Of a stretch of 64,000 nucleotides of DNA, positions 14,720 to 61,995 are shown one piece after another. This stretch comes from Malacoraja senta (taxonomy: Eukaryota). Within the stretch, counting starts at the first letter, position 1. Every line of letters begins with the position of its first letter. The stretch lies in the NCBI GenBank assembly GCA_038087875.1, contig CM075990.1:7814001-7878000 (forward strand), given 5' to 3'. The notes below the pieces were generated by a model. It saw only the letters and a program-made list of their open reading frames with translations. It was not told where the DNA came from and did not search any database. The translations under genes and the position numbers were made by a program.

Positions 14720-14740
14720 ATGAAAGAAGTGCCAACATGA
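14720..14740 (+). other. Upstream ORF 2 (MKEVPT*) whose TGA overlaps the WAPL ATG (ATGA)
   Basis: ATG AAA GAA GTG CCA ACA TGA; out of frame with the main ORF; A at -3; inside exon 2. Confidence 0.6.
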
Positions 14741-15241
14741 CATCAAGATATGGGAAAACCTACAGCAAGAAGGGAAGTACTGGCAACTCGAAATTTGATG
14801 AGGTGTTCTCTGGTAAGCGTGCGAAGATAAGCACGAAATGGGGGGAGACCACCTTTAAGGCTCAGCTGACCCAGAAGAGACCGAATGTCAAGCCAGAGCC
14901 AGTGGAGCAGCCCAAGCGGCAGAAGGTTGAAGACCAGCTGACCGAGGACCCGTTTGGGTTTGACAGCGACGATGATTCTCTCCCTGTGTCGTCGCGGAAT
15001 CCAACCCTGGCCAAGGCGCCGCAGTCCGCAGAGCCCCCGAGACCGTCCGATGGCGATGGTGTGACCTCCCTGCTGGAGGTGAACAGTAGGATGAGTCGGC
15101 CTGTTGGCGGCGAGGCCCTTGTGTGCAGCAGTTTTGCCGTCTTGGCTGATACAGTCCAGGAGAACAGTTTGGGTCGAAGTGTTGCCTTGTGTTCAGAGAC
15201 CAAAGAAGCCCAAGTCTCTGCCAACAGGTTGAACTCGTTGG
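14737..15241 (+). CDS. wapl: WAPL (wings apart-like, cohesin release factor), first coding exon; exon spans 14715-15241, CDS partial
   Basis: Translation MTSRYGKTYSKKGSTGNSKFDEVFSGKRAKISTKWGETTFKAQLTQKRPN...EDPFGFDSDDDSLPVSS matches the vertebrate WAPL N-terminus as I recall it (MTSRFGKTYSRKGG...KFDEVFS...STKWGETTF...DPFGFDSDDESLPVSS), including an FGF motif. Acceptor ttctttttacag ends at 14714; ATG context gccaacATG; consensus donor G|GTGAGT at 15241/15242 (phase 1, 505 coding nt). Confidence 0.93.
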
Positions 15242-16849
15242 GTGAGTCCTCATTTCTACGTCATAATGACCAGTTCTCTGGGAACGGGCTGTGCCAATGA
15301 TGGTAAAGGTCACCAGTGGGGTGCTGACTCCATTCTGCAGTTTGGCGGGTGGAGAAATGTGACCAGTTGGGCCGGGCATTTGGTGAGGTCACTCGGAGGT
15401 TTGGGGAGAGGAGGGATGGAGGTGTAGGTGTCGTGGTGCCTTGGACTTGGGGCAATGATTACAGGGCCACGCAATGCTGAGGGTCGGTGTGGAGTGAGCT
15501 TTGACCTGGGGCTTGTACACAAAACAACAGCAAGTCTCTCTGTGTAACAGAAGAAACATGTCTCCTGCAAAGGGAGGCATAACATGCACCAACATTAAAG
15601 GTGTGAGTGACAACAACAATAATTGGGATCTGCCATTTATCCTAAAATCCGACTACATTTTTAAAAGCACTGGAATCCTCAATATATGCTATTCAGAGGT
15701 AAACCTAAAACTTAAAACTCCAGTCCTTGTATCAGTACCTAAACACTAAGTATTATCTCTTCAGAATCTTAACTGTTTATTTCAAAGGGCAATGATTTCC
15801 CACACTGCGTTAGATACTTAGAGGCCATCTCTTTGGCATTAACTGCGTTGAGATGCTTAGTGCTATATCACCCAGTGTTACAGGGTGATAGAACTGTGCC
15901 CATCAGTACAGCAATGTAGTGCTAAACATCGACCACTGTCCTTCAGCAGAATACTCCAGGGTCTGGAGTTGGATACAGACCATGACTTGGCATTGGCCCT
16001 CTCGGTCAGACGACCCACTGGGTGGCTGGTGCCGGGCAGCTGGGAGAGTTTGGATCATTGGCCACAGTCTTCCTGGTGCAGGGCTGGGCGGATGATCAGA
16101 AGGCTGGAGATAAAATCTCACAGAGAGAGCTGCACAATTTGCACATGGTCAGTTGTTACAAGATTTTTATTCCAGTAATTAGTACCATGAAACTACAAGA
16201 TTGTCATAAAGCCTCCTCTGGTTCTCTAGTCTCCTTCAGGTGTGAAAATATGTTGCCCTTGCCTATGTGTGCAACCTGTCCAACAGCAATACTTGGTCAA
16301 GATTGAAGTCTGCAGCCTCTGCGCATTGTGTGGTTGTAACTATCGTGCAAAATGGTGGAGTTTGAGCCGTTAAAATTCGCATAACACCCATGAAATATTG
16401 AACTATCATCTAGAGCAGAATTGCATTCCTGTCTAATCTTATCAGAAAGTCAGCATGTCCACATTGTGTCCATGCCATCAAACTAGTTGTTCACCCCTGC
16501 TTCTGTGAGTTGTAGAAAGACAGGTCATGAGTGGAACCAAGTGAAGCTCCAATCATTAACCCTCATGCCCTTTCTTTGGACAGAACTCCTTGCCTGCCCT
16601 CCCTCTGTTTCTAGAACTCCCAATGCAATCAGAACTTTCTCGCTGGCATCACCAGGCCAAACTGATCGCTCTGAAGAAGGGTCTCAACCTGAAACGTCAC
16701 CTATTCATTTTCTACAGAGATGCTGCCTGACCCGCGGAGTTTACTCCAGCATTTTGAGTCTATCTTGGCTCTCACACGTCTCCTGATTACTCCTATCATT
16801 GATCATCAGGTCCTTGTCTCCCATGCAATCATTGATCTTATTCCTTTGA

Positions 16850-22675: not shown

Positions 22676-22835
22676 TATTGTTTGCGGCATTGACGTCACT
22701 TCGTTCTGAAATTAATTTCAGTGTCTGTATTTGAACCAAGCCGTTCATGGGTTTCATGCTGAATGTTACTGACTAAACCCAAATAATACTTTGACAGAGA
22801 GGGGCTTAGGATCCATCTGTGAGCTGACGACAAGC

Positions 22836-23465
22836 GAGTTTGGTATTCCGACTGTGCATGCCCAGGTCATAGGTCACTGGAGATAAACATACTCATACAC
22901 ACAAAATGCTGCTGTAACTCAGCGGGTCAGGCAACATCTCTGGAGAAGGGTCTCGACCCGAAATGTCACCTATTCCTTTTCTCCAAAGATGCTGCCTGTC
23001 CCGCTGAGTTACTGTAGCATTTTGTGTGTATCCCCCGTTGATGACTGGTGCTCGGCTTTCGCCGGCCACTGAGGGGGTTAACCGATAGCCACTGGATAAG
23101 GCGAGAGGTACAGCTGAAGGTCCACGGCCCGTCGGGGAACGGGTTCCACGGAAGTTTGAGCTGGAGTTAGCACTTCTTCTCCGTGCTGGCTGTAAGCCTG
23201 GGGGCCGCAACTGCTCCGGACCGGTGTCCCGTTAGTCCAGGGTCACCCCGGACATCTCCAGCCTCCCCCGGACAGGGATGGGGCACTCGGGAGGGGACGG
23301 GGACGGTCCAGTTGTAATTCAACAGCGCTTGCAGCGCCGGAGAACCGGGTTCGATCCTGACTACGGATGAAACGCAGATCTGTATACATGCAGCAGCTGA
23401 ACAGCCGAGAATGTTTATCTCCAGTGACCTATGACCTGGGCATACGCAGCCGGAATACCGAACTC
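22836..23465. mobile_element. Non-autonomous TIR element, superfamily unassigned, with mosaic interior
   Basis: 55-bp TIRs 22836-22890 and 23411-23465 (51/55 identical); interior holds a Penelope-derived palindrome (22895-23030), GC-rich sequence and a SINE-head-like piece (23325-23365). No TSD identified. Confidence 0.75.
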
Positions 23466-24178
23466 AGTGAGTTATAGGACAGTGAGCCCATCCTTGCTGT
23501 GTTCATTGAGGTTGGCTGATATACACACTGGGGGAATTACTGTAATTTTAAGAGATATTGGGGCCTTTTCCCTACTTAACAAGAATGATGAGACAACGGT
23601 TTTGGGGAAGGGAAGACGTTTCTAGCTTTGACAACGTTTTTTCTCTTTTTCCCTTAAGATGTCATGATTGCTTATTTACAATGCTGAAGGCATGAATTAT
23701 CAACAATTTCATATTATTTTACTTGCTGCAAATTAGAGAGCCCTAGGATTCAGCCTGGGCTTTAAGTAGTTGAAGACATGGGAGCTGGTATATGGCTGGG
23801 GAAATGGAAACTAATTTCAGAAATAATTATTTCAGTGAGAGAGTTGTCAGTTTATGGACAGGCACCCCAGAGAGATGGAGGGAACAGAAAGCATAAATTC
23901 AATTAAATGTTAATGTCATTATTTTGGGATCCAGTTTGAGTAATTTGATGTCACACGTTTGGAGGAGCGGAGATTTTGGATCCTCTGAATCTTTAAGCTC
24001 TGGCACTACTATTTTCATCCATTGTTTAGGTCTGATGGAGTTTGATCACCGCCAGCTTGAAGCAGCGACACAACCTCTTTGATGTAGGATGAATGTCCCA
24101 AAGCTTTTTCAAAGGAACTATAACCCAAATATTAACATTTGTCACGGGTTTGCAATTCCCCGATTTCCTTTAATGAAA

Positions 24179-25815: not shown

Positions 25816-27969
25816 ACATAGAAACATAGAAAATAGGTGCAGGAGTAGGCCATTCGGCCCTTCGAGCCTGCACAGCCATTCGATATGATCATGGCTGATC
25901 ATCCAACTCGGTATCCCATCCCTGCCTTCTCTCCATACCCCCTGATCCCTTTAGCCACAAGGGCCACATCTAACTCCCTCTTAAATATAGCCAATGAACT
26001 GGCCTCAACTACCTTCTGTGGCAGAGAATTCCACAGATTCACCACTCTCTGTGTAAAAAATGATTTTCTCATCTCGGTCCTAAAAGACTTCCCCCTTATC
26101 CTTAAACTGTGACCCCTAGTTCTGGACTTCCCCAACATCGGGAATAATCTTCCTGCATCTAGCCTGTCGAACCACTTAAGAATTTTGTAAGTTTCTATAA
26201 AATCCCCCCTCAATCTTCTAAATTCTAGCGTGTACAAGCCGAGTCTATCCAGTCTTTCTTCATATGAAAGTCCTGCCATCCCAGGAATCTGTCTGGTGAA
26301 CCTTCTCTGTACTCCCTCTATGGCAAGAATGTCTTTCCTCAGATTAGGAGACCAAAACTGTACGCAATATTCCAGGTGTGGTCTCACCAAGACCCTGTAC
26401 AACTGCAGTAGAACCTCCCTGCTCTTATACTCAAATCCTTTTGCTATGAATGCTAACATACCATTTGCTTTCTTCACTGCCTGCTGCACCTGCATCCCTA
26501 CTTTCAATGACTGGTGTACCATGACACCCAGGTCTCGTTGCATCTCCCCTTTTCCTAATCGGCCACCATTCAGATAATAGTCTACTTTCCTGTTTTTGCC
26601 ACCAAAATGGATAACCTCACATTTATCCACATTATACTGCATCTACCATGCATTTGCCCACTCACCCAACCTATTCAAGTCACCTTGCAGCCTCCTAGCA
26701 TCCTCCTCACAGCTAACACTGCCCCCCCAGCTTCGTGTCATCCGCAAACTTGGAGATGTTGCATTCAATTTCCTCATCCAGATCATTAATATATATTGTA
26801 AATAGCTGGGGTCCCAGCACTGAGCCTTGCGGTACCCCACTAGTCACTGCCTGCCATTCTGAAAAGGACCCGTTTACTCCTACTCTTTGCTTCCTGTCTG
26901 CCAGCCAGTTCTCTATCCACATCAATACTGAACCCCCAATACCGTGTGCTTTAAGTTTGCATACTAATCTCTTATGTGGGACCTTGTCGAAAGCCTTCTG
27001 AAAGTCCAGATATAACACATCCACTGGTTCTCCCTTATCCACTCGACTAGTTACATCCTCGAAAAATTCTATAAGATTCGTCAGACATGATTTACCTTTC
27101 ATAAATCCATGCTGACTTTGTCCAATGAATTCACCACTTTCCAAATGTGCTGCTATCCCATCTTTAATAACTGACTCCAGAATTTTCCCCACCACCGATG
27201 TTAGACTAACTGGTCTGTAATTCCCCGTTTTCTCTCTCCCTCCCTTTTTAAAAAGTGGGGTTACATTAGCTACCCTCCAGTCCTCAGGAACTACTCCAGA
27301 ATCTAAAGAGTTTTGAAAAATTATCACTAATGCATCCACTATTTCTGCGGCTACTTCCTTAAGTACTCTGGGATGCAACTTATCTGGCCCTGGGGATTTA
27401 TCGGCCTTTAATCCATTCAATTTACCTAACACCAGTTCCCGGCTAACCTGGATTTCACTCAGTTCCTCCATCTCATTTAACCCCCATTCCCTTGCTATTT
27501 CCGGCAGATTATTTATGTCTTCCTTAGTGAAGACAGAACCAAAGTAGTTATTCAATTGGTCTGCCATGTCCTTGTTCCCCATGATCAATTCGCCTGTTTC
27601 TGACTGCAAGGGACCTACATTTGTTTTAACTAATCTTTTCCTCTTCACATATCTATAAAAACTTTTGGAGTCAGTTTTTATGTTCCCTGCCAGTTTTCTT
27701 TCATAATCTATTTTCCCTTTCCTAATTAAGCCTTTTGTCCTCCTCTGCTGGACTCTAAATTTCTCCCAGTCCTCTGGTAGGCTGCTTTTTCTGGCTAATT
27801 TGTACGCTTCATCTTTTGTTTTGATACTATCCCTGATTTCCCTTGTTATCCACGGATGCACTACCTTCCCCGATTCATTCTTTTGCCAAACTAGGATGAA
27901 CAATTGTTGTAGTTCATCCCTGCAGTTTTTAAATGCCTTCCATTGCATATCCACCGTCAACCCTTTCAG
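25816..27969 (-). mobile_element. 5'-truncated CR1-clade LINE (ORF2 reverse transcriptase and 3' end), frameshifted
   Basis: ORFs 26713-27972 and 25899-26642 contain [62 protein letters not shown]; 3' tail (TATGTTTC)n; frameshifts near 26720 and 26642. Confidence 0.95.
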
Positions 27970-28689
27970 CACTCCACGGATCAGGCAGCATCTCTGGAGA
28001 ATAGGAACGTGACGTTTCCTGTCGGCGTCGCCGGCTGTATTCCTCTAGTATCTTTGATTGCGCGGCAAAGATACTAGGTGCAGGGTGACGAACAGCGGCA
28101 GCAGCGGCTCCACCGCCTCCTCCTCCCGCACCCCGCCCAGCGGAAGGAGGCCTCCCTCTCCCTCCATCCCTCCTCCCGGCCTCGGCGTGCGAGAGGGGTT
28201 GTTTTGAAAGCGGCATTAGTGGATTTGCAGGCAGCGGCCGCTATCGCCCTGATAACGGCAGCTGCCTGCAAATCCGCCAACGGCGCTTTCAAAACAACCC
28301 CTCCCGCACGCCGAGGCCGGTAGGAGGGAGGGGGAGGCCTCCTTCTGCCATCTGAAGCAGCTGCACCAAAGATCCTATAGTAGGAGGGAGGAGGGGAGGC
28401 GGTGGCACTTTGGCGTTGGACAGGGACGGCCAAGGCAGCGGGGCGATGTTGTCCGAGGAGCGCTGACCTTCCTTCCTCCCCACCTCCTCTGCCCCTTCCC
28501 CCCTCTCTTTCTCTCTCTTGTACGCCCCCCTCCACCCCTCTTATCCTGGGACCCCTCCTCTCCATCCCGCACTGATCCCCATTCCCTCTATTCAGTCCTC
28601 ACTGACATCCCCTGTGCTCCCCTCCCCAACTACCCCCCCCAATCTATTCATCACCATACCCACCTCGCATTGATTCTCCTGCCATACCC

Positions 28690-29350
28690 ACCCCCCCCCC
28701 CCCATCCATCCTACATTGGTCCCCCAATTCATCCTGTACTGACCCCCCTTCCCATCCATCCTGCACTTCTCCCCCCCATTCATACTGCACTGATCCTCCC
28801 ATTCATCGCGTACTGACCCACCCTCCATTTACCCTGCACCAATCCCCCCATCCATCCTGTAGTGATCTACCCATTCATCTTTTACTGATCCCCCATTCAT
28901 CCTGTACTGATCCCCTCATGCATCCTGTACTGTGTCCCCCATTCATCCTGTACTGATCTCCCATTCATCCTAAACTGATCCCCTAATTCATCCTGTAGTG
29001 ATCCCCTCATTCATCCTGTAGTGATCTTCCATTCATCCTGCACAGACCCTCCGATCCACACTGTCCTGACCCCTCCCCCATTCATCCTGTACTGATTTCC
29101 CCCCATTCATCCTGGGCTGACCCCCCCCCATCTATCCTGCACTGAACCACCATTCAAGAAGAATGGGGGGAACAGTCTGAAGAATGGTCTCGACCCAAAA
29201 TGTTGCCTATTTCCTTTGCTCCATAGATGCTGCCTCACCTGCTGAATTTCTCCAACATTTTTGTCTACCCCCATTCATCCTGTACTGAACCCCCCATTCA
29301 TCCTGTACTGATCCCCCCCCCAACCATCCCGTACTGATCCCCCCCATTCA
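28690..29350. repeat. ~21-bp degenerate minisatellite inside hAT-like copy A
   Basis: (cccccattcatcctgtactgat)n; complementary array at ~31720-32170 in copy B. Confidence 0.85.
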
Positions 29351-30140
29351 ACACCACTGACATCCCCCGTGCTCTCCCCTCACAATTTTACTTACTCCAA
29401 CCAACACGTACTAATTCACCTGCCTCAATCCATCCATTCCGCACCGATTGCCTTCTCAACCCCCGCCATCTATCCACCCCGCACTGATTCACACATCCCC
29501 TGACCCTATTGTGCTTCATGGTCTTCAGAGTGAACATTGACTATGTTTGATAACGAAATGCAATCAAATGTGTTTTTATTCCCAATGTTATTATTTGTTT
29601 TGACACCTTTAAACATATTACTAAAAGAACATTTGCTGCAGTTATGTCCTTTGGCCATCTCTTGTCAGTTAGTGTAATGTTTAACCTGTCAGATGGGTAT
29701 AGTCGGCTTTAACAGCTATTATCATAAAATGCCTTTAGAAATTTCCTTGCAACCTGTATATTTTGTTATGGATAAATTATGTGGGAAGCCAGAGTGTTTC
29801 TGTGTCAATAGCAATAACGACCCATGCTATGACCATGTCATGGTAATTTTCAGTCCTTCACAGAAAACATGCTTGCATCAATCTGTAGTGTGTATGGTTA
29901 AGCATATATGTTACCATGGTTCAGGATTTATTGACACGGGTTGATCATATGCTGAATAATCAACCACATTTTTGTTTGGAAGTGGAAAGAACTAATAGAA
30001 ATTGCATTAATTGCAATGTGTAAAAAGAGTTGAGATATTGTATTATAATTTTGCTGCATGTCATTGTGGTATATATCATGTCTTGATTGGTGAATATGTT
30101 TAGTTTGTGAGTTATTTGAAGCAGAAATAATATGTGAATG

Positions 30141-30357
30141 TAGACAAAAGTGCTGGAGAAACTCAGCAGATGCGGCAGCATCTATGGAGCGAAGGAAATA
30201 GGCAACGTTTCGGGCCGAAACCCTTCTTCAGACTGATGGGTTTCGGCCTGAAACGTTGCCTATTTCCTTCGCTCCATAGATGCTGCTGCACCCGCTGAGT
30301 TTCTCCAGCACTTTTGTCTACCATCGATTTTCCAGCATTTGCATTTCCTTCTTGAAC
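30141..30357. mobile_element. Penelope-terminal-repeat palindrome inserted in hAT-like copy A
   Basis: Head-to-head arms; 14-bp duplication ATAATATGTGAATG (30127-30140; second copy split by element B). Confidence 0.8.
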
Positions 30358-30365
30358 ATAATATG

Positions 30366-33047
30366 CAGGGCTCTCGCTTAACTTTTTTCCTGTTGCCAGC
30401 CGGGCAACCTTGGCAGCTTTTTAGGGTTGCCAAATGACAGTTTAGGTGGTCATTTAAGATGGCTTGCATAACGCGTGCGATAATGTGCTCGGACGAAGTG
30501 CGTAGTTACCAGTCGGAATTATACTCAATGAAGCATTCACATATTATTTCTGCTTCAAATAAAATCACAAACTAAACATATTCACCAATCAAGACATGAT
30601 ATATCCCACAATGACATGCAGCAAAATTATAAGACAGTATGTCAACTCTTTTTACACATTAATACAATTTCTATTAGTTCTTTCGACTTCTAAACAAACA
30701 TGTGGTTGGATTATTCAGCGTATGATCAACCTGTGTCAATAAATCCTGGACCATGGTAACATATATGCTTAACCATGCACACTACAGATTGATGCAAGCA
30801 TGTTTTCTGTGAAGGACCGAAAATTATAACATGGCCATAGCATGGGTCGTTAATGCTATTGGTACAGAAACACTCTCGCTTCCCACATAATTTATCCACA
30901 ACAAAATATACAGGTTGCAAGGAAATTTCTATGATATTTTTATGATAATTGCTGTTAAAACCGACTATACCCATCTGACAGGTTAAACATTACACTAGTT
31001 GACGAGATGGCCAAAGGACATAACTGTTCTTTTGGTAATATATTTAAGGGTGTCAAGGCGCCACATTACCGGACATTCAGATTAAATGTACGTGTTGTGA
31101 ACAGCAATGAAGATACCCAGTTTGTAAGCACCAGATTTAAAAAAAATTATTGATAAACGCTGTTTCCATCATTCCCACTTCAGAATTAACGTTAAAATTT
31201 CAACTGAAATATCTCCTGACCAAATATGTGATGTATATGATTGACTGTAGAAGTAAAACATGGATAAATCCAATGTATAGTTGTGAATGTTGCTCATTAA
31301 GTAACTACAGTACTGATACACCATATTAAGAGCATTAATTTGCCGTTAAAATGAATTCTGTAATAACGTGTCAACGGCAGCAGTGACAATCGAACACTGC
31401 GGTTTTAATGTTTCACGTGTTCACAATTTAATTAATCCATCTTTATGGATTAAAACAAATTATAACATTGGGAATTAAAACACATTTGATTGCATTCCGA
31501 TATGTTCAGAATGTTCGCTCTGAAGACATTTCCAGCACAATAGGGTCAGGGAGGGGGGTGTGTGTGAATCAGTGGGGGGTGGATAGATGGCAGGGGTGGG
31601 GGGGGGGGGGATTAAAAGACAGTCGGTGCAGAATGGATGGATTGAGGCAGGTGAATTAGTACGTGTTGGTTGGAGTAGGTAAAATTGTGAGGGGAGAGCA
31701 CGGGGGATGTCAGTGGTGTTGAATGGGGGTTCAGTACGGGATGGATGGGGGTAGATAAAAGTGCTGGAGAAACTCAGCGGGTGAGGCAGCATCTATGGAG
31801 CGAAGGAAATAGGCAACGTTTCGGGTCGAGACCCTTCTTCAGACTGTTCCCCTCATTCTTCTTGAATGGGAGGATCAGTATAGAATGGATGGGGGGGAGA
31901 TCAGCGCAGGATGAACGGGGGGGGGGGGGGGTCAGTACAGTGTGGATCGGAGGGTCTGTGCAGGATGAATGGGGGATCACTACAGGATGAATAAGGGGAA
32001 GGTGCAGGGTAAATGGAGGGTGGGTCAGTACGGGATGAATGCGTGGATTAGTACAGGATGGATGGGGGATCAGTACAGGATGGATGGAGGAGAAGTGCAG
32101 GATGGATGGGAAGGGGGGTAAGTACAGGATGAATTGGGGGGGACCAGTGTAGGATGGATGGGGGGGGTGGCAGGAGAATCAATGCGAGGTGGATACGGTG
32201 ATCAGCACAGGATGAATAGATGGGGGGGGGGGGGTGGTTGATGGGGAGGGGAGCACAGGGATGTCAGTGAGGACTGAATAGAGGAGGGAATGGGGATCAG
32301 TGTGGGATGATGAGGAGGGGTCCCAGGATAAAGGGGGGCGTACAAGAGAGAGAGAGAGGGGGGGGGCGGGGAGAGGTGGGGAGGAAGGAAGGTCAGCTGA
32401 CAACATCGCCCCGCTGCCTTGGCCATTGGGGACTCCTCGCCACCGCCTCCCTCCTCCGCCAGCCAACAGCAAGGTGCGAGGCCGAGCGGTGCAGCTCAAA
32501 GATCCTATAGCTATAAGATCTTTGGTGCAGCTGCTTCAGAAAGGTCGGAGCGAATGACGGACCCCGAACCGCGGCAGCAGCAGCTCCATCTCCTCCTCCC
32601 GCCCCCCGCCCGCCCTGATAAGGGCCTCTGCTTGCAAACCCGATAACGGTGCTTTTAAAACAAACTCTCCCGCACGCCGAGGCCTCCCTCTGCGTGCGAG
32701 ACGGTTTGTTTTCAAAGCGCCGTTAGCGGGTTTGCAAGCAGAGGTGTGCGGGGGGAGGAGGAGATGGAGCCGCTGCTGCTGCTGTTCGGGGCCCGTCATT
32801 CGCTCCGACCCTTCCTCACCCTGCACTGTGTATCTTTGCCCCGCACGGCCGTCGCCGCCGACACAAAACGTCACGTTCCTTTTCTCCAGAGATGCTGCCT
32901 GACCCGCGGAGTTACTCCAGTTTTTTGTGTCTACGGTACAAACCAGTATCTGGTTGCCAAGCCGGGCAAAATGACTCGGTGTTTTGGTTGCCCGGCGGTG
33001 CTTTGACTGGTCTGGGGCACCCGGGCAACCGCTAATTTCGAGCTCTG
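30366..33047. mobile_element. Inner, apparently complete copy (B) of the same non-autonomous hAT-like element, inverted relative to A
   Basis: Imperfect TIRs CAGGGCTCTCGCTTAAC / GCTAATTTCGAGCTCTG; subterminal GGTTGCC/GGCAACC repeats at both ends; flanks ATATG (30361-30365) and TTATG (33048-33052); no transposase ORF. hAT assignment rests on the CAGGG end and subterminal repeats only. Confidence 0.75.
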
Positions 33048-40345: not shown

Positions 40346-41393
40346 ATGTCTGTGTTGGTCGTGGCTCAATGTAACTGAAGGTGTATTTGACAATGCTGCT
40401 GAAAGGCATACGGTTTCCCCATGCATCACAAAGACAAGTGGATTTGTAGGTTAATTGGACTTAAAATTGTGAATGCGTAAATGCAATAACAGAACTTGTG
40501 TGACTGGGTGATCAGTGGTCGGCATGTCACTGCTGGGCCAAAGTTTCCATGCTGTATCTCAAAATTAATCCATGTCCACAGGAGGGTGACCCAATTGGTC
40601 TGCAGGGTGGGTAAAATCACGAGGGGATTGTTCTTACTCAGGTTCTGTTACTTTACACATTGCTATCTTTACTAAACATTGCTACGCTTGCCTGGCTTTC
40701 CATAAAATCGTATAGTCAGTCCATGGAGATTTCAAATGCAAGTTTATAATTAAGTGTCCAATTGGATGAAAGGAAGTGGGTTGGTAGCACAGCATATTGT
40801 TACTCCTTTGATACATGCAATTTTTCAGTGAAGTCTGTCATCTTGTAATTGACGTTTACAAAACCTAAAAAGCTAAGAAGTTCAGACCAGATTTCAATTG
40901 ATAAAAGAGTGAGCTCTGACATTTTTTATAAATGTAGTGATTATAGCTGAGGGATGATTTGTGTAAATACAGAATTTACATCATACAGTTCTTCTCTTGA
41001 ACCGAAAGATGACTAATTAAAGTGTAATGTCTGCTTTGTTTCCTTGCTCAGATGAGGAAATTTGAAATAATGTGTAAAACACGGTTGGTGTTTTACCTCC
41101 GTGCTACTTTCTGTGCTGGGATCATACCTCAATTTCATTAATGTTTCAAAATTTATCCTAGTCATACAGCATGAAAACGGGCCCATCGGGGGTTGGGGGG
41201 GGGGGGGCGGGAGGAGACCTGGCGGGGGGAAGACCCGCAAACGCTGCCGAACCGCCACTGGACCGTCACCGGTTCTCTCCCCCCCCCCCCACTCGAGAGG
41301 TCTGGACCGACGGGACACCGGCCCCCAGGCCTAGCGCTGAGAAGCACTAACCCCAACACCAGCAGCCCCAGACCCATAGAACCCACAGCCAGC

Positions 41394-41888
41394 GTCAACT
41401 CCAGCCCAACCCCGCTCCAGCTCTAGAGGAACCCGCTCCCTGGTGGGCAGCTACGGCGGCAAGTGCCAGTTCGCCCACAGCCTTAGCAGCTACCCCAAGT
41501 ACAAGCCGTACCTTGCACACCACCGGCTTCTGCCCTTATGGTACCCACTGCCACTTCATCCACAGCCCCGAGGATGTGCGAGGGCCCTGGCCTCATCTGC
41601 GCCAGAGCGCCAGCCTGGGCTCAGCCTCCTCCGGTCTGGGCTAGACTGGGCCGAGCTGCGGGCTGCCTTCAGCCATGACCTGGCGTTAGAGCTGGCCCTG
41701 ACTCTGGGCTTGGAGCTGGGCAAGGGAGGGAGAGGAGGTTGCTGCTGCCGGCAGCACCACCATCGCCAACAGTACCAGCAGCTCCAGCAGGTGGCCATAT
41801 GCAGACTCTCTCTCCAACCAGGACGACTCCGGTGGCTCCGAGTCACCTGCGGCTGCCCATCTTCAGCACGATCTCGGTGTCGGACTGA
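41394..41888 (+). pseudogene. Deleted, frameshifted ZFP36/TTP-family (tandem CCCH zinc finger) coding relic
   Basis: Colinear motifs across frames: VNSS (41394), YGGKCQFAH-SLSSYPKYK (41452-41505), RTLHTTGFCPYGTHCHFIHSPE..LRQSASLG (from 41507), DSLSNQDDSGGSESP (41804-41848) and terminal RLPIFSTISVSD* (41850-41888; CNOT1-binding motif of the family). KTELC leaders missing from both fingers. Paralog not assignable by eye. Confidence 0.88.
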
Positions 41889-41934
41889 GGGGAGGGGGGT
41901 GGAGGTGGAGGGAACCCAGCGGGGCAGGCAGAGC

Positions 41935-42196
41935 CGAGCTGGAGCCAGTGGCTGCATATCCGGGGCCGCACCGCCAGCCCAGGGCCACCTCAGACACCTC
42001 TGGACAGGGACGGGCCACTGGGGAGGGGACGCAGACGGCCTAACAGCAACTCAACATAACCGGCAGCGAGGAGAGCCGACTCCGACTATGGACGAAACGC
42101 AAGCCTGCGCACAATGCAGCACCACCGTTGCCAAAACTGTTTTATAGCTAGTGATCTATGACCTGGGCATGCACAGTCGGAATACCGAACTCGCTT
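41935..42196. mobile_element. Right part and TIR of a relative of the 22836-23465 element, fused to the ZFP36 relic
   Basis: 42150-42192 agtgatctatgacctgggcatgcacagtcggaataccgaactc matches the TIR; colinear interior similarity to 23155-23410 (e.g. ggacagggacgggccactgggaggggacg vs ggacagggatggggcactcgggaggggacg; gactatggacgaaacgca vs gactacggatgaaacgca). Left TIR not found. Confidence 0.7.
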
Positions 42197-43319
42197 ATTT
42201 CATTGGTCACCTACAGTTAACGCAGCAGCTGTGTTATTGAGGGACAATGGTGTCTAATAACTACAAGGGTGCTATATGGAAACTTTTTTCCCCTCTTCCG
42301 TTTAATCCAAGATAGCATATTTCTGCTTGTCGAGTTTCCAAGGTAACTTCTAAATATTCTCTAGTTCCCGATCGATAGCACATTCTAACAAATTTGGCCA
42401 ATGTGATGCAAAATGAATTCCCTAATTCATCACATGTATCCAATTCATGTTATGGAAACACGTTATAGCAGAACTATCTGTATTAAGTACCAGTTTCTTA
42501 AGACTTTAAGACTCGATCCCTGAAATCTAGGTTTTGATTATGTACTTTTTAAGCATTGCAGTTGGCAATGGAACTTTAATTAACCTGTCCATCCAAAGCC
42601 TTGATAACTGAAGAGTGAAAAGAAAGCTTTTAAATGTGATGTACCAAGATTGAATCTGTGAATTCAAATTTCTGAAGGTTGCTGCCTCCTTTGTAGTTAG
42701 TTTTTATTGCCTTTCGTACAAGCAAATAATCACTGACCTGCCCTTTATTTGTTCAGTAGGCGGGATCTGAAACTACACAATGTTTTAAATTGTACAAGGG
42801 TTTGTCACGGGAAGCAGTTTGACATTTTACCTACCAATTATCTTGAGTGGGTGTTTCCCTCTGGAATTTAGTATTGATTTATTTTGGTTTTATTCAACCC
42901 AAAAGCAGTATTTTGGGTGAGGATGACTAGGAATTATGTTCCACTCTTCTAAAAATATTATAGGTGATGAAATTAGAGTAACACATAAATATCAAATTGA
43001 TCTTTTACCATTGAATGGCACCAAAAACATGATATCGAGAGTAAGAGAGGTTGGATATGCTGAATGAAACATTTGTCTTCAAATTGGCTCCAGCCTTTAG
43101 AGTATTGGCTGTACAGATGTACTCCAAAGACGTACAGGTATGTAGGTTAATTGGCTTGGTGTATGTGTAAATTGTCCCTGGTGTGTGCAGGATAGTGTTA
43201 ATTTGCAGGTATTGCTGGTTGGCATGGACTCAGCGGGCCGAAGGGCCTGTTTCTACACTATTTCCAAACTAAACTATAGTTAGTAATGTGTGAAATATCC
43301 ATATGTCTGGAGCTGTGTC

Positions 43320-46658: not shown

Positions 46659-49179
46659 TCTTATTTAAAAACATTCAAAGATTCTACTTCCAACATTCTT
46701 TAAGAAGTTCCAGAGAGTTTTGATCATCAAAAATGTTTTGCTACATCCGTCTTAAATCCCAATTTTTTTTAATTTTGACTCATTCCAGACTTGTCCACGG
46801 ATCTTGTTTAAACCAAGTCCCCTCTCGTTTTAAGCCGTTCAATCTTTCAAGACATCTTGCCCTTTTATATAAATAAAATCTATTATTATTATTATTTTGG
46901 CTGGACAGAGAATGGTATGGTGTTGGGTTACTGTGTGGTTGATGAAGGACCTTTTTGCTCTAAATATTACTCTTTCCACATCGTCCTGGGCTTGGTGGAT
47001 GAAATCAGTGAAGATTCGAAGTTGAGCATGTGTGCGTGTCCAAGTGACATACCAATGTAACTTTAGATGGTAGCCACACAATCTGTCATCTCACTGGTTT
47101 GAACCAGTGACGTACTTTCAAATTGTATTAACCGTAGCAAGATCTTGGATCAATAATAATTATGAAAATTGCTGTGGTGAATTTCAAAACTAGTTAATGA
47201 GATCTTTAACGTTACCTGATTGATGGATTCTTAGTTTAAGTCTTGCTGTTTGGTGAAGTGATGGATAGTCTGCGGATTTTACTTTTGCTTTGGCAGGCAT
47301 GTGATTTGCTGACCAGGACCTTTCCCAATTCCACCTACTAGATGGTATAATCATAAGACAATCTTTGGATTGTTTTCTGTGCGAAGCTGCTACCTGAAGC
47401 AGCACTTCAGTGCTTAATATGCTGTGATTTCACTTCCTTCAAATAAAGGAGCCTTTGCTCTTGCTGTACTTAATCTCATGTGATGCCTTGTGACCCTTGA
47501 TGTTGTTCAGTGTTTTATGAGCCGTGAGACTGTTTGTATCCTGTCGATAAAGCTGTATTAAGAAACAGCCTAACCTGAAAATGAGTCCTCAAACGTCTGC
47601 TTCCTCATACGCACTATCATGACTTATGACATGGTTCATACAGTATGAGATAGCCTTAACATTTATCGAAGTGCAACTAGCATTTTGACCTGTGAGAAAT
47701 AGCCTTGTTAAGCACTTATAGAAGTGATTTGAGCATTAAACCAGATTTCTTTTAACCTAATATTAAGACGGCTTGAGAGAGCTAACTAGGTTCAATGTGA
47801 TGCCTGCAACATTGTACAATATCCAAGGGCGAAAATAACCAATGAAGAAGAAAATGTACTGTGATAATTTATTGGCGGCCCTAACCTTGTACATGTAGCA
47901 GATAGCATTACTGACCTTCAAAGCTATATCACAAACAAAGCTAAGAATATTTGCTGATTCAGTGGTAAAGGATGTTGCTCTCCAATTAATTCACTAATTT
48001 TCTACTGTGTGCAAGTCTAAAGCCTTTGTTTAGAACTAACCCCTTGATGGGCATGGACCACGGTGTTATTTAGGTCAAAATTGCTGGAACGCACTCTGTA
48101 TATTGAAATCCTGCTCGCAGCTAGACTACGAGTGAGAGGGCAAAAATTTGTATTGTTCCAAAGTCTTTCCTTTCTAGGTTACCAGACTAGAAAAAACGTC
48201 TGCACTAAAAATCCAGAGACTCGTGTTGAAAACCCACCATTGCAGTTGTGTTATTTAAATTTGGCTACTAATCTGCAGTTCAAAAGACTAAATTCAGCAA
48301 AAAAAAGTTGCTCTCAAAAACATCTGATTCGTTAAATCTTTTGGAGACGTATGTCTGCCAACCTTGCCTGGTCGAACCTATATGGGTTCAAAATTGTCTT
48401 CACCACAGAAGGCATAGGGTAGTTCTGGAGGTGCTATTTAGATCTGTAGTCTATGAGCAGTGGCTTTCTGCAAGGATCAGCGTGTGACTGTTGTTTGTGT
48501 TATAAATACATGATTTGGACAAAAATATAGGTGGGCTGATTATAAATTTGCAGACAACACAAAAATTAGTTGTGACTAGTGAAGGAAGATGTCAAAGGAT
48601 TTGGCAGGAAATAGATCATTTGAAAGATCCTGTGAAAAATGACAGATGGGGTTAATGCAGACAGGGGTGGCCACTGGTTGGTGTGGGCCAGTTTCGATGA
48701 ATGACCCGATTTCATGCTGTATGATTCTATGACTCTACCACATGTGTTAAAAGGGATAGATTCGGAACAGATCTGGGCATCCACGATGCACAATGAATCA
48801 TCAGTTGCAGCAGAAATTTATACTGCCACAATCTAACCATGACCTGGCCAATCCCTCTGGCCTTGTTATCAAGCCCAGCTATAAACGTTGGTTCCATGAG
48901 GAATTAGGAACAGTATGCTGAGAACAGCATCAGGCATACCTGAAAATCAGTGAGACTGCAACATGAGCACATGCATGCCAAACAGCATGCAGTGAACAGC
49001 TAAATAATCTCAGAAGCAGGCTAACACATGATAGAGGCTCTGGGAATATTCTCAATGATCAACCATGATCGTATAGAATCGCATCCTTCTGTTAGCATAG
49101 TGTCCATGATGGGCCGAATGGCCTAATTCTGCTCCTATCACTTATGACCTTATGGCAAAGCAACCTCAAGCAGATTTAA

Positions 49180-55415: not shown

Positions 55416-55551
55416 GGGTGGGAGATTGCAACCTTCACGTGGTCCGCCCTGTTTCGACTAATGCAATCAACTCGACGTGCACAAGCGGAAGATCAAATAG
55501 AACAAGTTGTCCTACAACTTTAGGCTGTGCACGCCACACGAAAAAGGAAGA
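55416..55551 (+). mobile_element. 136-bp retroposed insertion in the Tc1 transposase start (probable LINE 3' end)
   Basis: 13-bp TSD AGGACCAGAGTTG at 55403-55415 and 55552-55564; purine-rich AAG-type tail. Confidence 0.75.
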
Positions 55552-55984
55552 AGGACCAGAGTTGTGCCAAGGAAAGTCAAAGCCATTATGAGACTGAGAA
55601 ACAAGAATATAACTGTTAGAGACATCAGCCAAACCTTAGGCTTACCAAAAGCAACTGTTTGGAACATCATTAAGAAGAAAGAGAGCACTGATGAGCTTAC
55701 TATTCGCAAAGGGACTGGCAGGTCAAGAAAGACCTCCACAGCTGATTACAAAATAATTCTCTCTATAATAAAGAAAAATCCCCAAATACCTGTCCGACAG
55801 ATCAGAAACACTCTTCAGGAGTCAGGTGTGGATTTGTCAATGACCACTGTCCGCAGAAGACTTTGTGAACAAAAATACAGAGGCTACATTGCAAGATGCA
55901 AACCACTGGTTAGCTGCAAAAATAGGATGGCCAGGTTAGTTTGCTAAGAAATACTTAAAAGAGCAATGACAGTTCTGGAAAAAG

Positions 55985-56624
55985 GTAGACAGAAATGCTG
56001 GAGAAACTCAGCGGGTGAGGCAGCATCTATGGAGCGAAGGAAATAGGCAACGTTTAGGGTCGAAATCCTTCTTCAGACTGATGTGAGGGTGGGGGAGACA
56101 GGAGGAAGAAAGGAAGAGGTGGGGCCAGAGGGTTGAGGGAGAGCTGAGAAGGGTAGGAGAAAGTAAGGAGTACCTGAAGTTAGAGAAGTCAATGTTCATA
56201 CCGCTACGGTGCAAACTGCCCAAGCGAAATATGAGGTGCTGCTCCTCCAATTTACGGTGGTCTTCACTCTGGCCATGGAGGAGGCCCAGGACAGAAAGGT
56301 CGGATTCGGAATGGGAGGGGGGGTTGAAGTCCTGAGCCACCGAGAGATCTGGTTGGTTATTGCAAACCGAGCGGAGGTGTTCGGCGAAGCGATCGCCAAG
56401 CCTACGCTTGGTCTCACCGATGTAATCTGGCATCTAGAGCAGCGGATGCAATAGATGAGGTTGGAGGAGGTGCAGGTGAACCTCTGCTGCACCTGGAAAG
56501 ACTGCTTGAGTCCTTGAATGGAGCCAAGGTGGGAGGTAAAGCGACAAGTGTAGCAATTCTTGTGGTTGCAAGGGAAAGTGCCCGGAGAGGGGGTGGTTCG
56601 GGTTGGAAGGGACGAATTGACCAG
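55985..56624 (-). mobile_element. Penelope-like retroelement 3' fragment (GIY-YIG endonuclease plus terminal repeat)
   Basis: FTCTSSNLIYCIRCSRC and YIGETKRRLGDRFAEHLRSV...RKLEEQHLIFRLGSL...GMNIDF (frameshifted), followed by the ~130-bp terminal repeat found throughout the window; GGAAAAAG duplicated at 55977-55984 and 56625-56632. Confidence 0.9.
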
Positions 56625-57216
56625 GGAAAAAGATATTGTGGACAGATGAGATTAAAACACTGTAGTGGGGGTGTTATGGCCAGGGTATGTATGGGACATT
56701 ATGGTGCCATGGGGGGGGGGGGGCTATGTATAAGTAAACACTGCTGTAATTTCTACATAGTGAAATTAAAATGTATAAAAATGGCCTTTATTAAAATCTG
56801 ACAATGTGCACTTTAACTACGTGCGATTTTTGTTCTATTACAAATCTCAAATTGTGGATTACAGAGGCAAATAAATGAATTATGGGTCTTTGTCCCAAAC
56901 ATTATGGAGGGCACTGTAATTTAATCTGGTTTTAAAAGAATTCCTTCTCAATCCTTGTAGAAAAGTTACATAATCTCTGAAAATTCTGCACAGTTGCTTC
57001 CTATCCCTGTACCCTATCTGGCTGCAGGATCTCTTGGGCACTTGCATTGTTTTGCCTGAATCAATTAAACTCAAGTTTATAACTTGGATTTTGAGTTAAC
57101 CTGTATTGTGATTTAGAGTGATTAATTCTATCAACATTTCTCCATTTTATTCATCTGCTCCTTTGGTTTCCTGTCTCCTGTATACCAATTTATTGCTGAT
57201 CTCCAACAGAAGCTTA

Positions 57217-61023: not shown

Positions 61024-61995
61024 TAGAGATTAGAGAGATTAGAGATTCCTTTATTTGTCATTCAGACCTTTCGGTCTGAACGAAATTTCGTTGCCTGCAG
61101 TCATACATATAATAATAAATGACAAAACACACAATAAACACAAATTAACATCCACCACAGTGAGTTCACCAGGCACCTCCTCACTGTGATGGAGGCAAAA
61201 GTCTTAAAGTCTCTGTCTCTTCCCGCTTTGTTCTCCCTCTGCGCTGAGGCGATCCAGGCTTCTGATGCTGTGGCCCCGCCGGGCGACGGTAAGCCAGTCC
61301 CGCGGCCGAATCCGTGCTCCGCGACGGGCCGGCTCAAACTCCGCGGCCCGGGGTGGTCGAAGCTGCCGAAGCTGCCGCCCTCCAGTCCAGCGGACGCAGC
61401 TGTAGTTGCGGGAGCCCCAGAAAAACAGGTCACCAACCTGTGACCTGCGCGCTCCCGACGATGTCGTCCACTGGGCCAGCCGTGGCCGAGCCTCCGGATT
61501 CAGGTCGCCACCAGTGTCCTCGGTCACCACTGCCGGAACGCCACCGCAGCCCCGAAGTTGGCCAGCCTCGCGCTCCCGAAGATGTCGTCCACTGGGCCAG
61601 CTGCGGCCGAGCTTCCGGATTCAGGTCGCCACCAGTGTCCTCGGTCGCCACCGCCGGAACGCCACCGCAGCCCCGAAGTTGGCCAGCCCCGCGCCGGTAA
61701 GTCCTGGCTCTGCCTCCGGAGCCTCGAGGTCGATCGGTCGCTCGCAGTTGGAGTTGGAGGCCGGCAGCTCCGCCATTTTGGCCTCAGCGCAGACGGAGGC
61801 AGAGAAGGGGAATACGACAAGAAAAAGTCGCATTCCCCCGAAGGAAGAGACAAAAATCATGTTTCACCCCCCACCCCACACATACACAACCCAATAAACT
61901 AAATTTTAACTAAAACAGGACAAAAGAAAACAACAAAAAAAGTAAAAACAGACGGACTGCAGGCGAGCCGCTGCTGTACGACAGCGCCGCCACTT
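61024..61995 (-). mobile_element. ~1-kb non-coding GC-rich retroposon with LINE-like 3' end and internal 121-bp tandem duplication
   Basis: On the minus strand ends ...ttcagaccgaaaggtctgaatgacaaataaagg(aatctct)n; duplication units start at 61448 and 61569; related 3' ends at ~7090-7235, 37788-37965 and 57432-57600. Confidence 0.6.

Follow-up and report, generated by a model that had tools for sequence, protein, structure and literature searches.

We analysed a stretch of 64,000 nucleotides from the skate Malacoraja senta (GenBank assembly GCA_038087875.1, contig CM075990.1, positions 7,814,001 to 7,878,000 of the forward strand), hereafter the window, in whose own numbering all positions are given. 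In the intron that follows the WAPL exon at 14737-15241, and on the same strand as WAPL, the window contains a decayed portion of a ZFP36-family coding sequence flanked on both sides by sequence of one repeat element. This copy is very probably a decayed, left-truncated member of a skate repeat family with many copies, whose long inverted arms enclose the 3' coding part of a ZFP36 gene, and which can be described as a non-autonomous, cargo-bearing terminal inverted repeat (TIR) element of Pack-TIR-like type.

The ZFP36 relic and its flanking arms

The features on which the argument depends are as follows (strand in brackets).

14737-15241 (+): first coding exon of the host gene WAPL; 92% to skate WAPL by tblastn, GTGAGT donor at 15242
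22828-23477 (+): cargo-free relative, limits approximate; left TIR tip at 22828-22894, long arm and right TIR at 23033-23477
41158-41186 (+): short remnant of a different interspersed repeat, next to the truncated left end; 20-bp match of 95% at 48705-48724
41187-41236 (no strand): G-rich stretch at the expected left terminus, with no TIR motif
41237-41445 (-): left arm remnant, an inverted copy of element arm 23061-23332, at multicopy depth
41443-41445 (+): start-codon site sharing the reading frame of the cargo; GTG in the window, but ATG in almost every other copy
41452-41888 (+): cargo, a decayed ZFP36-family coding sequence (parent Y122-D299 plus TGA), from a frameshift-aware protein alignment
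41889-42140 (+): right arm; element homology from about 41934, with 41889-41933 shared with XP_055493223.1
42141-42199 (+): right TIR and conserved end; 91% in a 56-bp alignment with the left TIR (22832-22887)

The cargo comprises 437 bp, within the 100-5000 bp range of Pack-TIR internal sequences, and lies in an island with a G+C content of 62-67% against 36% in its flanks. A zf-CCCH profile match in the island (E 1.5e-5) exceeds the curated Pfam cut-off, and the best match among solved structures is ZFP36L2. A protein search with the relic frame, in which stops were replaced by X, ranked skate proteins first and identified the parent, at the protein level, as a 299-residue ZFP36-family protein ending in RRLPIFSRISVSD. 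It is encoded on chromosomes of 12-17 Mb in three skates (XP_055519735.1, XP_032870229.1 and XP_078287002.1, labelled by NCBI as ZFP36L1-like or L2-A-like), that of Leucoraja erinacea measuring 12.36 Mb. From Y122 (41452) to D299 (41885) the cargo is identical to XP_055519735.1 at 117 of 143 residues (82% over the aligned part), with eight gaps (deletions) and four frameshifts, near 41506, 41636, 41788 and 41849, and the relic ends at 41850-41888 with RLPIFSTISVSD-TGA. Just 12 of 45 residues are identical upstream of Y122. The captured portion represents the 3' 60% of the coding sequence, the N-terminal 121 residues of the parent not being included. Finger 1 of the relic lacks its first two Cys residues and finger 2 its first; two intact CCCH fingers in one open frame are absent from 41452-41888, and this copy is unable to encode a working protein.

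Both sides of the cargo derive from the repeat represented at 22828-23477, in opposite orientation, and the cargo is thus enclosed by inverted arms of at least 200-300 bp. On the right, 41934-42192 aligns with 23181-23465 at a score of 184, compared with a maximum of 43 in shuffled sequences (0 of 300), and BLAST returns a core at 41991-42192 (71%); the homology starts about 45 bp past the stop codon. On the left, 41237-41448 aligns with the reverse complement of 23061-23332 (152 of 202 aligned positions matching; score 92, shuffled maximum 50, 0 of 500). A direct-repeat relationship between the left part and the arm was rejected, as 97 of 300 shuffles reached its score. The inner 40 bp or so of the left arm (41407-41445) are common to other copies of the family and of uncertain origin, and we therefore place the 5' breakpoint at 41407-41452. 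The left terminus of the element has been lost, together with its TIR and any target-site duplication (TSD), beside the G-rich run and the remnant at 41158-41186, which we take to be the tail of a short or long interspersed nuclear element (SINE or LINE); the bin 41092-41173 has multicopy depth in the run contigs described below. The cargo-free relative, which has both TIRs (91.5% over 59 bp), holds an insertion at 22895-23032 of a common palindromic skate repeat with many copies in the window. The TIR motif itself occurs three times in the window, where none is expected.

The mirrored arms also bear on a composite origin, in which two copies of the element inserted head-to-head, one in finger 1 and one just past the parental stop codon, and were then moved by their outer ends. 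This would still be a mobile cargo element and differs only in the capture step. It would account for finding the same 22.8-kb arm in opposite orientation on both sides of the cargo, but neither junction has an inner TIR, the three TIR motifs of the window lying elsewhere, and the parental coding sequence is intact in three skates, its protein being uninterrupted at the site of the 5' junction. We regard this origin as unlikely.

An ordinary processed pseudogene next to an independent transposon end would explain a cargo without an intron. In vertebrate ZFP36 genes, however, the finger domain is always in exon 2 and the intron is 5' of it, as stated in the available text of PMC3546996; because the cargo falls wholly within this exon, its lack of an intron is uninformative. 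The sequence after the stop (41889-42400) contains no ATTTA and no AATAAA, and its longest A-run is four, so that neither the AU-rich 3' untranslated region nor the poly(A) tail of a processed pseudogene is found. Arms are present on both sides, and the same junctions occur at other loci. The shared junctions refute this explanation unless the gene models concerned are misassembled, and we give it practically no credence.

Several points of an earlier sequence-only reading of the window can be judged at this stage. Its description of a G+C-rich island in an A+T-rich intron, of homology, starting some 45 bp beyond the stop, to the right part and TIR of the 22.8-kb element, and of the lack of poly(A), an AU-rich 3' untranslated region or a TSD agrees with ours, and the search for a parent that it proposed led to the 299-residue protein. 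It had traced a colinear ZFP36 coding sequence from VNSS to the stop. This holds as far as the 3' end is concerned, but the start is at about Y122, inside finger 1. VNSS was rejected as ZFP36 sequence, as this stretch aligns to the inverted element arm and the parent reads PSPSARYKTELC at this point. The first KTELC leader, thought to have been deleted, was never captured, since the relic begins inside finger 1. Finally, the element had been recognised on the right side only, the inverted arm at 41237-41448 having been missed, and its end set at 42196; contigs of sequencing runs place it at about 42199.

The chimera at other loci and in public sequencing runs

Two gene models of L. erinacea contain the junction between arm and cargo. 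XP_055493223.1, annotated as ZFP36-like, starts with MGRYSDKCQFAH at the position of window 41443 and continues into the same right arm (residues 167-243, E 1e-13); its C-terminal part also matches the 22.8-kb element. XP_055505784.1, annotated as ZFP36L3-like, carries the left arm at its N-terminus (E 1e-5) followed by the same junction peptide; in this arm, 13 of 15 residues agree with those read from the minus strand of the 22.8-kb element. These genes are on chromosomes of 87.98 Mb and 139.68 Mb, respectively, compared with 19.86 Mb for WAPL and 12.36 Mb for the parent. As their chromosomes differ from that of WAPL they are not orthologs of the window locus, and the same arm-to-ZFP36 start point is found at unlinked loci on three chromosomes. 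Both models are chimeras of element and ZFP36 sequence, and neither is likely to be a real paralog. Among the best 150 of 4666 matches in a search of representatives, seven were examined and one was chimeric. Five WAPL proteins with 19-residue matches to the arm at E 0.001 were set aside as chance. A record from Logan, P0021, has an open frame of 180 residues with the same start point and is parent-like thereafter. We rejected it as proof of an intact young copy, since it has the family-type start GLAEL but shares GARP and SPIFEQ with the parent of L. erinacea, and it may be an assembly chimera.

Contigs from public skate runs provide a view of the family as a whole. Four of 24 listed runs (X1, X3, X4 and X23) were chosen and aligned to 40600-43050 at 80% likeness; X1, X3 and X4 are DNA-like, and X23 is RNA only by our guess. 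X1 contains the window sequence without differences in four pieces and may stem from the sample of the window itself. Against flank depths of approximately 5.6, 31 and 10 in X1, X3 and X4, summed contig depth, which is not a copy number, reaches 35-162x, 92-369x and 78-312x in six cargo bins, two X4 cargo bins being outliers (depth 46053 and 55197, or 4386x and 5257x flank). Six single sites lie at 26-312x flank depth and the TIR bin at 1750-2630x. Contig counts, which are independent of depth, give the same picture: the family letter is read at 41443 in 30, 66 and 34 contigs and at 41536 in 33, 66 and 35 (X1, X3 and X4), a multiplicity beyond what a few true paralogs give. We infer that copies with cargo are likely to number on the order of a hundred or more per genome, and the family as a whole a thousand or more.

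The distribution of these copies speaks to whether one chance juxtaposition was merely amplified by segmental duplication or in tandem. The two outlier bins of X4 would fit such amplification, and some local array may exist. Depth nevertheless drops to single-copy level within about 100 bp to the left of the element and directly to the right of it, and 142, 232, 144 and 16 contigs (X1, X3, X4 and X23) continue into unrelated sequence behind 42199 (agreement 0.33-0.40), which indicates a defined end at many sites. With loci on different chromosomes as well, amplification of this kind is very improbable. A short repeat at 42404-42485 in the right flank, with no other copy in the window, forms a separate multicopy bump of about 15-25x flank depth in three runs.

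The insertion in the WAPL intron can also be dated. In a further organism, B, a contig of single-copy depth runs from 37 letters of the TIR into the right flank known from the window, and the insertion is consequently older than the split from organism B. The same join in organism C extends over just 26 letters, below our 31-letter threshold. In X3, a contig at the single-copy depth of 31 joins 41219 to 41849 with four intervening letters. This contig may represent the orthologous copy of organism B after loss of the greater part of its cargo, or any other copy. Two X3 joints (41262>41928 and 41264>41919) that resembled cargo-free elements were dropped, as they may arise from repeats within the arms. 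Internal rearrangements are frequent in the family (151 joints, 54 of them with letters between) and are compatible with abortive gap repair, some possibly coming from within-arm repeats.

In the light of these results, two claims of the sequence-only reading are borne out, namely that the ZFP36 piece is captured cargo and not an ordinary retrocopy (arms on both sides, junctions shared elsewhere and no tail), and that the family is multicopy. The latter would have been contradicted by a single-copy junction, and the chimeric start is instead present in two gene models on other chromosomes, with multicopy cargo in three runs. A third claim, that the short deletions reflect repeated gap repair during transposition, is not supported: the linker and KTEPC losses are absent from three of three other chimeric protein records (XP_055493223.1, XP_055505784.1 and P0021), and in X4 and X23 the linker can still be read in loose ends at 41482-41484. 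These deletions are later decay private to the window copy and were rejected as marks of the family.

Several observations weigh against a mobile, cargo-bearing TIR element. The two arms of the window copy are only weakly alike when compared directly (13 of 500 shuffles reach the score), and this copy has neither a left TIR nor a TSD, so that the two TIRs of a Pack-TIR are not both present. Arm sequence was found at E < 1e-3 in just 2 of 302 compared proteins, the two gene models described above, and the right-arm peptide found nothing but itself among its 30 candidates (lengths 133-426). None of the four runs yielded an empty site or a full-length cargo-bearing copy from end to end, the depths quoted above are not counts of copies, and no transposase is linked to the element.

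The superfamily may be approached through the element end. Tc1/mariner elements duplicate TA and PIF/Harbinger elements a 3-bp TWA, whereas hAT or P elements have termini of CA...TG type and TSDs of 7-8 bp. The right end in the window reads CTCGCTTATT, followed mostly by G, and the first loose letter behind 42199 is G in all four runs. Such an end is compatible with a TA target, as in Tc1/mariner, with a TWA target, or with termini of the CA...TG kind. TA occupies 42196-42197 with a conserved T behind it, the 22.8-kb element having CA on its left and TA on its right, and TTA occupies 42195-42197, the corresponding letters of the 22.8-kb element being CAA and TTA; the last 2-5 bases of the conserved end may represent a TSD or a target preference. 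One 8-mer pair with one mismatch flanks the 22.8-kb element at a distance of 2-3 bases from its inferred ends, a level of agreement that chance could give. Searches with TIR patterns gave no hits in viral, metagenome and prokaryote contigs, as expected of collections without skate DNA. The TcMar group has expanded in skates to 3.28%, according to the accessible text of PMC12361510.

An alternative is that the family derives from a retroelement with inverted ends, of Penelope or DIRS type, and was amplified through RNA. In its favour, a 42-bp piece of the arm (23328-23369), which we take to be the head of a tRNA-type SINE, recurs in window repeats at 1363, 3447 and 5957 and suggests that the arm itself is composite, and the window holds what we presume to be a GIY-YIG-like relic. 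A retroelement would nevertheless have to account for a single sharp end that is followed by unrelated flanks in each of four runs, for the matching 59-bp TIRs at both ends of the relative and for the absence of a poly(A) tail, and we consider it distinctly improbable.

Possible products and the surrounding intron

The start-codon site lies at the inner end of the left arm. The window copy reads GTG at 41443-41445, but G>A at 41443 is found in 30, 66, 34 and 4 contigs of X1, X3, X4 and X23 (403 of 403, 4531 of 4569, 3275 of 3279 and 69 of 69 depth units), and the resulting ATG is the start Met of XP_055493223.1 and P0021. The product of the family consensus would comprise approximately 180 residues; it would retain a single intact finger as well as RLPIF at the C-terminus, but lack half of finger 1. 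RLPIF has a role in CCR4-NOT binding, and TTP mutants unable to bind reportedly inhibit the decay of AU-rich mRNA, to judge from the title of a 2002 report by Lai (PMID 11782475). Because nearly all other copies carry the in-frame ATG, there is a small chance that some open, transcribed copies act as dispersed truncated ZFP36 proteins, or as sense/antisense RNAs, that dampen AU-rich mRNA decay. X23 contigs that cross the 5' junction (records 9 and 10) and the stop (record 14) hint at expression. The deepest X23 contig differs from the cargo at 19 of 171 bases; this parent-like contig (depth 1255) spans only 41548-41718, and depth at 41830-42075 is 0-7, a gap that we do not count as evidence against an element in the parental 3' untranslated region.

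The only WAPL exon detected by tblastn in the 64-kb window is the first coding exon, and since 15242-64000 contains no further WAPL exon, the intron that begins at 15242 exceeds 48 kb. Compared with Amblyraja radiata, L. erinacea and Rhinoraja longicauda, the 169 residues of this exon show 5-11 differences; the number is far higher for other rays. This points to another skate, most likely a rajid. A search of the window against Rfam gave no matches. A second long inverted-repeat structure of the intron is a degenerate palindrome centred near 30340 (28428-32424), with arms at 28428-30140 and 30534-32424 that are 75-90% complementary and G+C-rich in their outer parts. Two long open reading frames of 443 and 247 residues at 25899-28044 (minus strand) presumably represent LINE reverse transcriptase. 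Further minus-strand frames at 55501-55947 and 56008-56651 resemble, in our estimation, a Tc1 transposase N-terminus and a relic of a Penelope-type GIY-YIG endonuclease. A G+C-rich island at 61100-61900 (57%) contains several tandem units of approximately 100 bp with open frames on both strands.

Origin of the family and comparison with known systems

The element most likely arose in a single capture at the DNA level, in which the 3' part of a large coding exon was placed between the inverted arms by template switching or gap filling. The chimera would then have spread by cut-and-paste, using transposase supplied in trans, within a family older than the split of several skates, and the window copy would since have decayed neutrally. 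A cargo-free relative with both TIRs is present in the same window. Introns do not discriminate against capture from RNA, but the cargo stops near the stop codon without a tail. Copies of the family share GLAEL with the Rhinoraja parent, the parents in Leucoraja and Amblyraja having GLSEL, which is a weak sign that capture may have preceded the change to GLSEL.

If this interpretation is true, the skate family would be an unusually large example of a vertebrate gene captured by a cut-and-paste transposon. With the greater part of the coding sequence of a regulator at likely hundreds of sites and in several skates, capture breakpoints, amplification and decay would become traceable between species. 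NCBI lists at least two copies in little skate as protein-coding (ZFP36-like and ZFP36L3-like), and such copies can inflate counts of the ZFP36 family and interfere with read mapping, with probes and with knock-down experiments on the genuine gene. Our literature search found no description of the family in a scope that excluded subscription papers, Repbase/Dfam and bioRxiv supplements, which may hold it; in the accessible text of the little skate genome paper (PMC9605692) neither "ZFP36" nor "transposon" occurs.

The closest parallels are the animal Pack-TIRs, for which we refer to the available portion of Tan et al. 2021 (PMC8277862). In Pack-hAT-N8_XT of the frog and Ssk-FB4 of Drosophila, as in the skate family, host sequence from a G+C-rich parent lies between TIR arms and the chimera occurs at distant loci; Ssk-FB4 likewise has long inverted arms and coding cargo. 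Multicopy Pack-TIRs are rare and small in that screen (100 genomes gave 281 unique Pack-TIRs but only four multicopy cases, the examples having 3-4 copies), and spread of the chimera by a trans-acting transposase is proposed for them. The skate signal differs in being two orders of magnitude higher, old and common to several species. The elephant shark had no Pack-TIRs, and the words "skate" and "ZFP36" are absent from the 12 text supplements. Since the pipeline accepted only unique hits and required 90% identity, a family such as that of the skates would tend to escape it. The skate element behaves as a multicopy Pack-TIR; with one TIR in the window copy, formal membership awaits a full-length copy.

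In plants, as far as the accessible literature describes them, Pack-MULEs and Pack-TYPE elements are likewise non-autonomous, have TIRs, and both carry fragments of genes and multiply them. In contrast to Pack-MULEs, the skate element is hosted by a vertebrate, is not assigned to the MULE superfamily and shows no 9-bp TSD in the window copy. High-copy amplification of captured gene pieces in a vertebrate is shared with the gene-capturing Helitrons of vesper bats, of which the available part of Thomas et al. 2014 (PMC4224331) gives 110 elements and 12,382 copies. Those elements, however, are rolling-circle transposons without TIRs, and their cargo consists mostly of 5' gene regions, whereas the skate family carries the 3' coding part.
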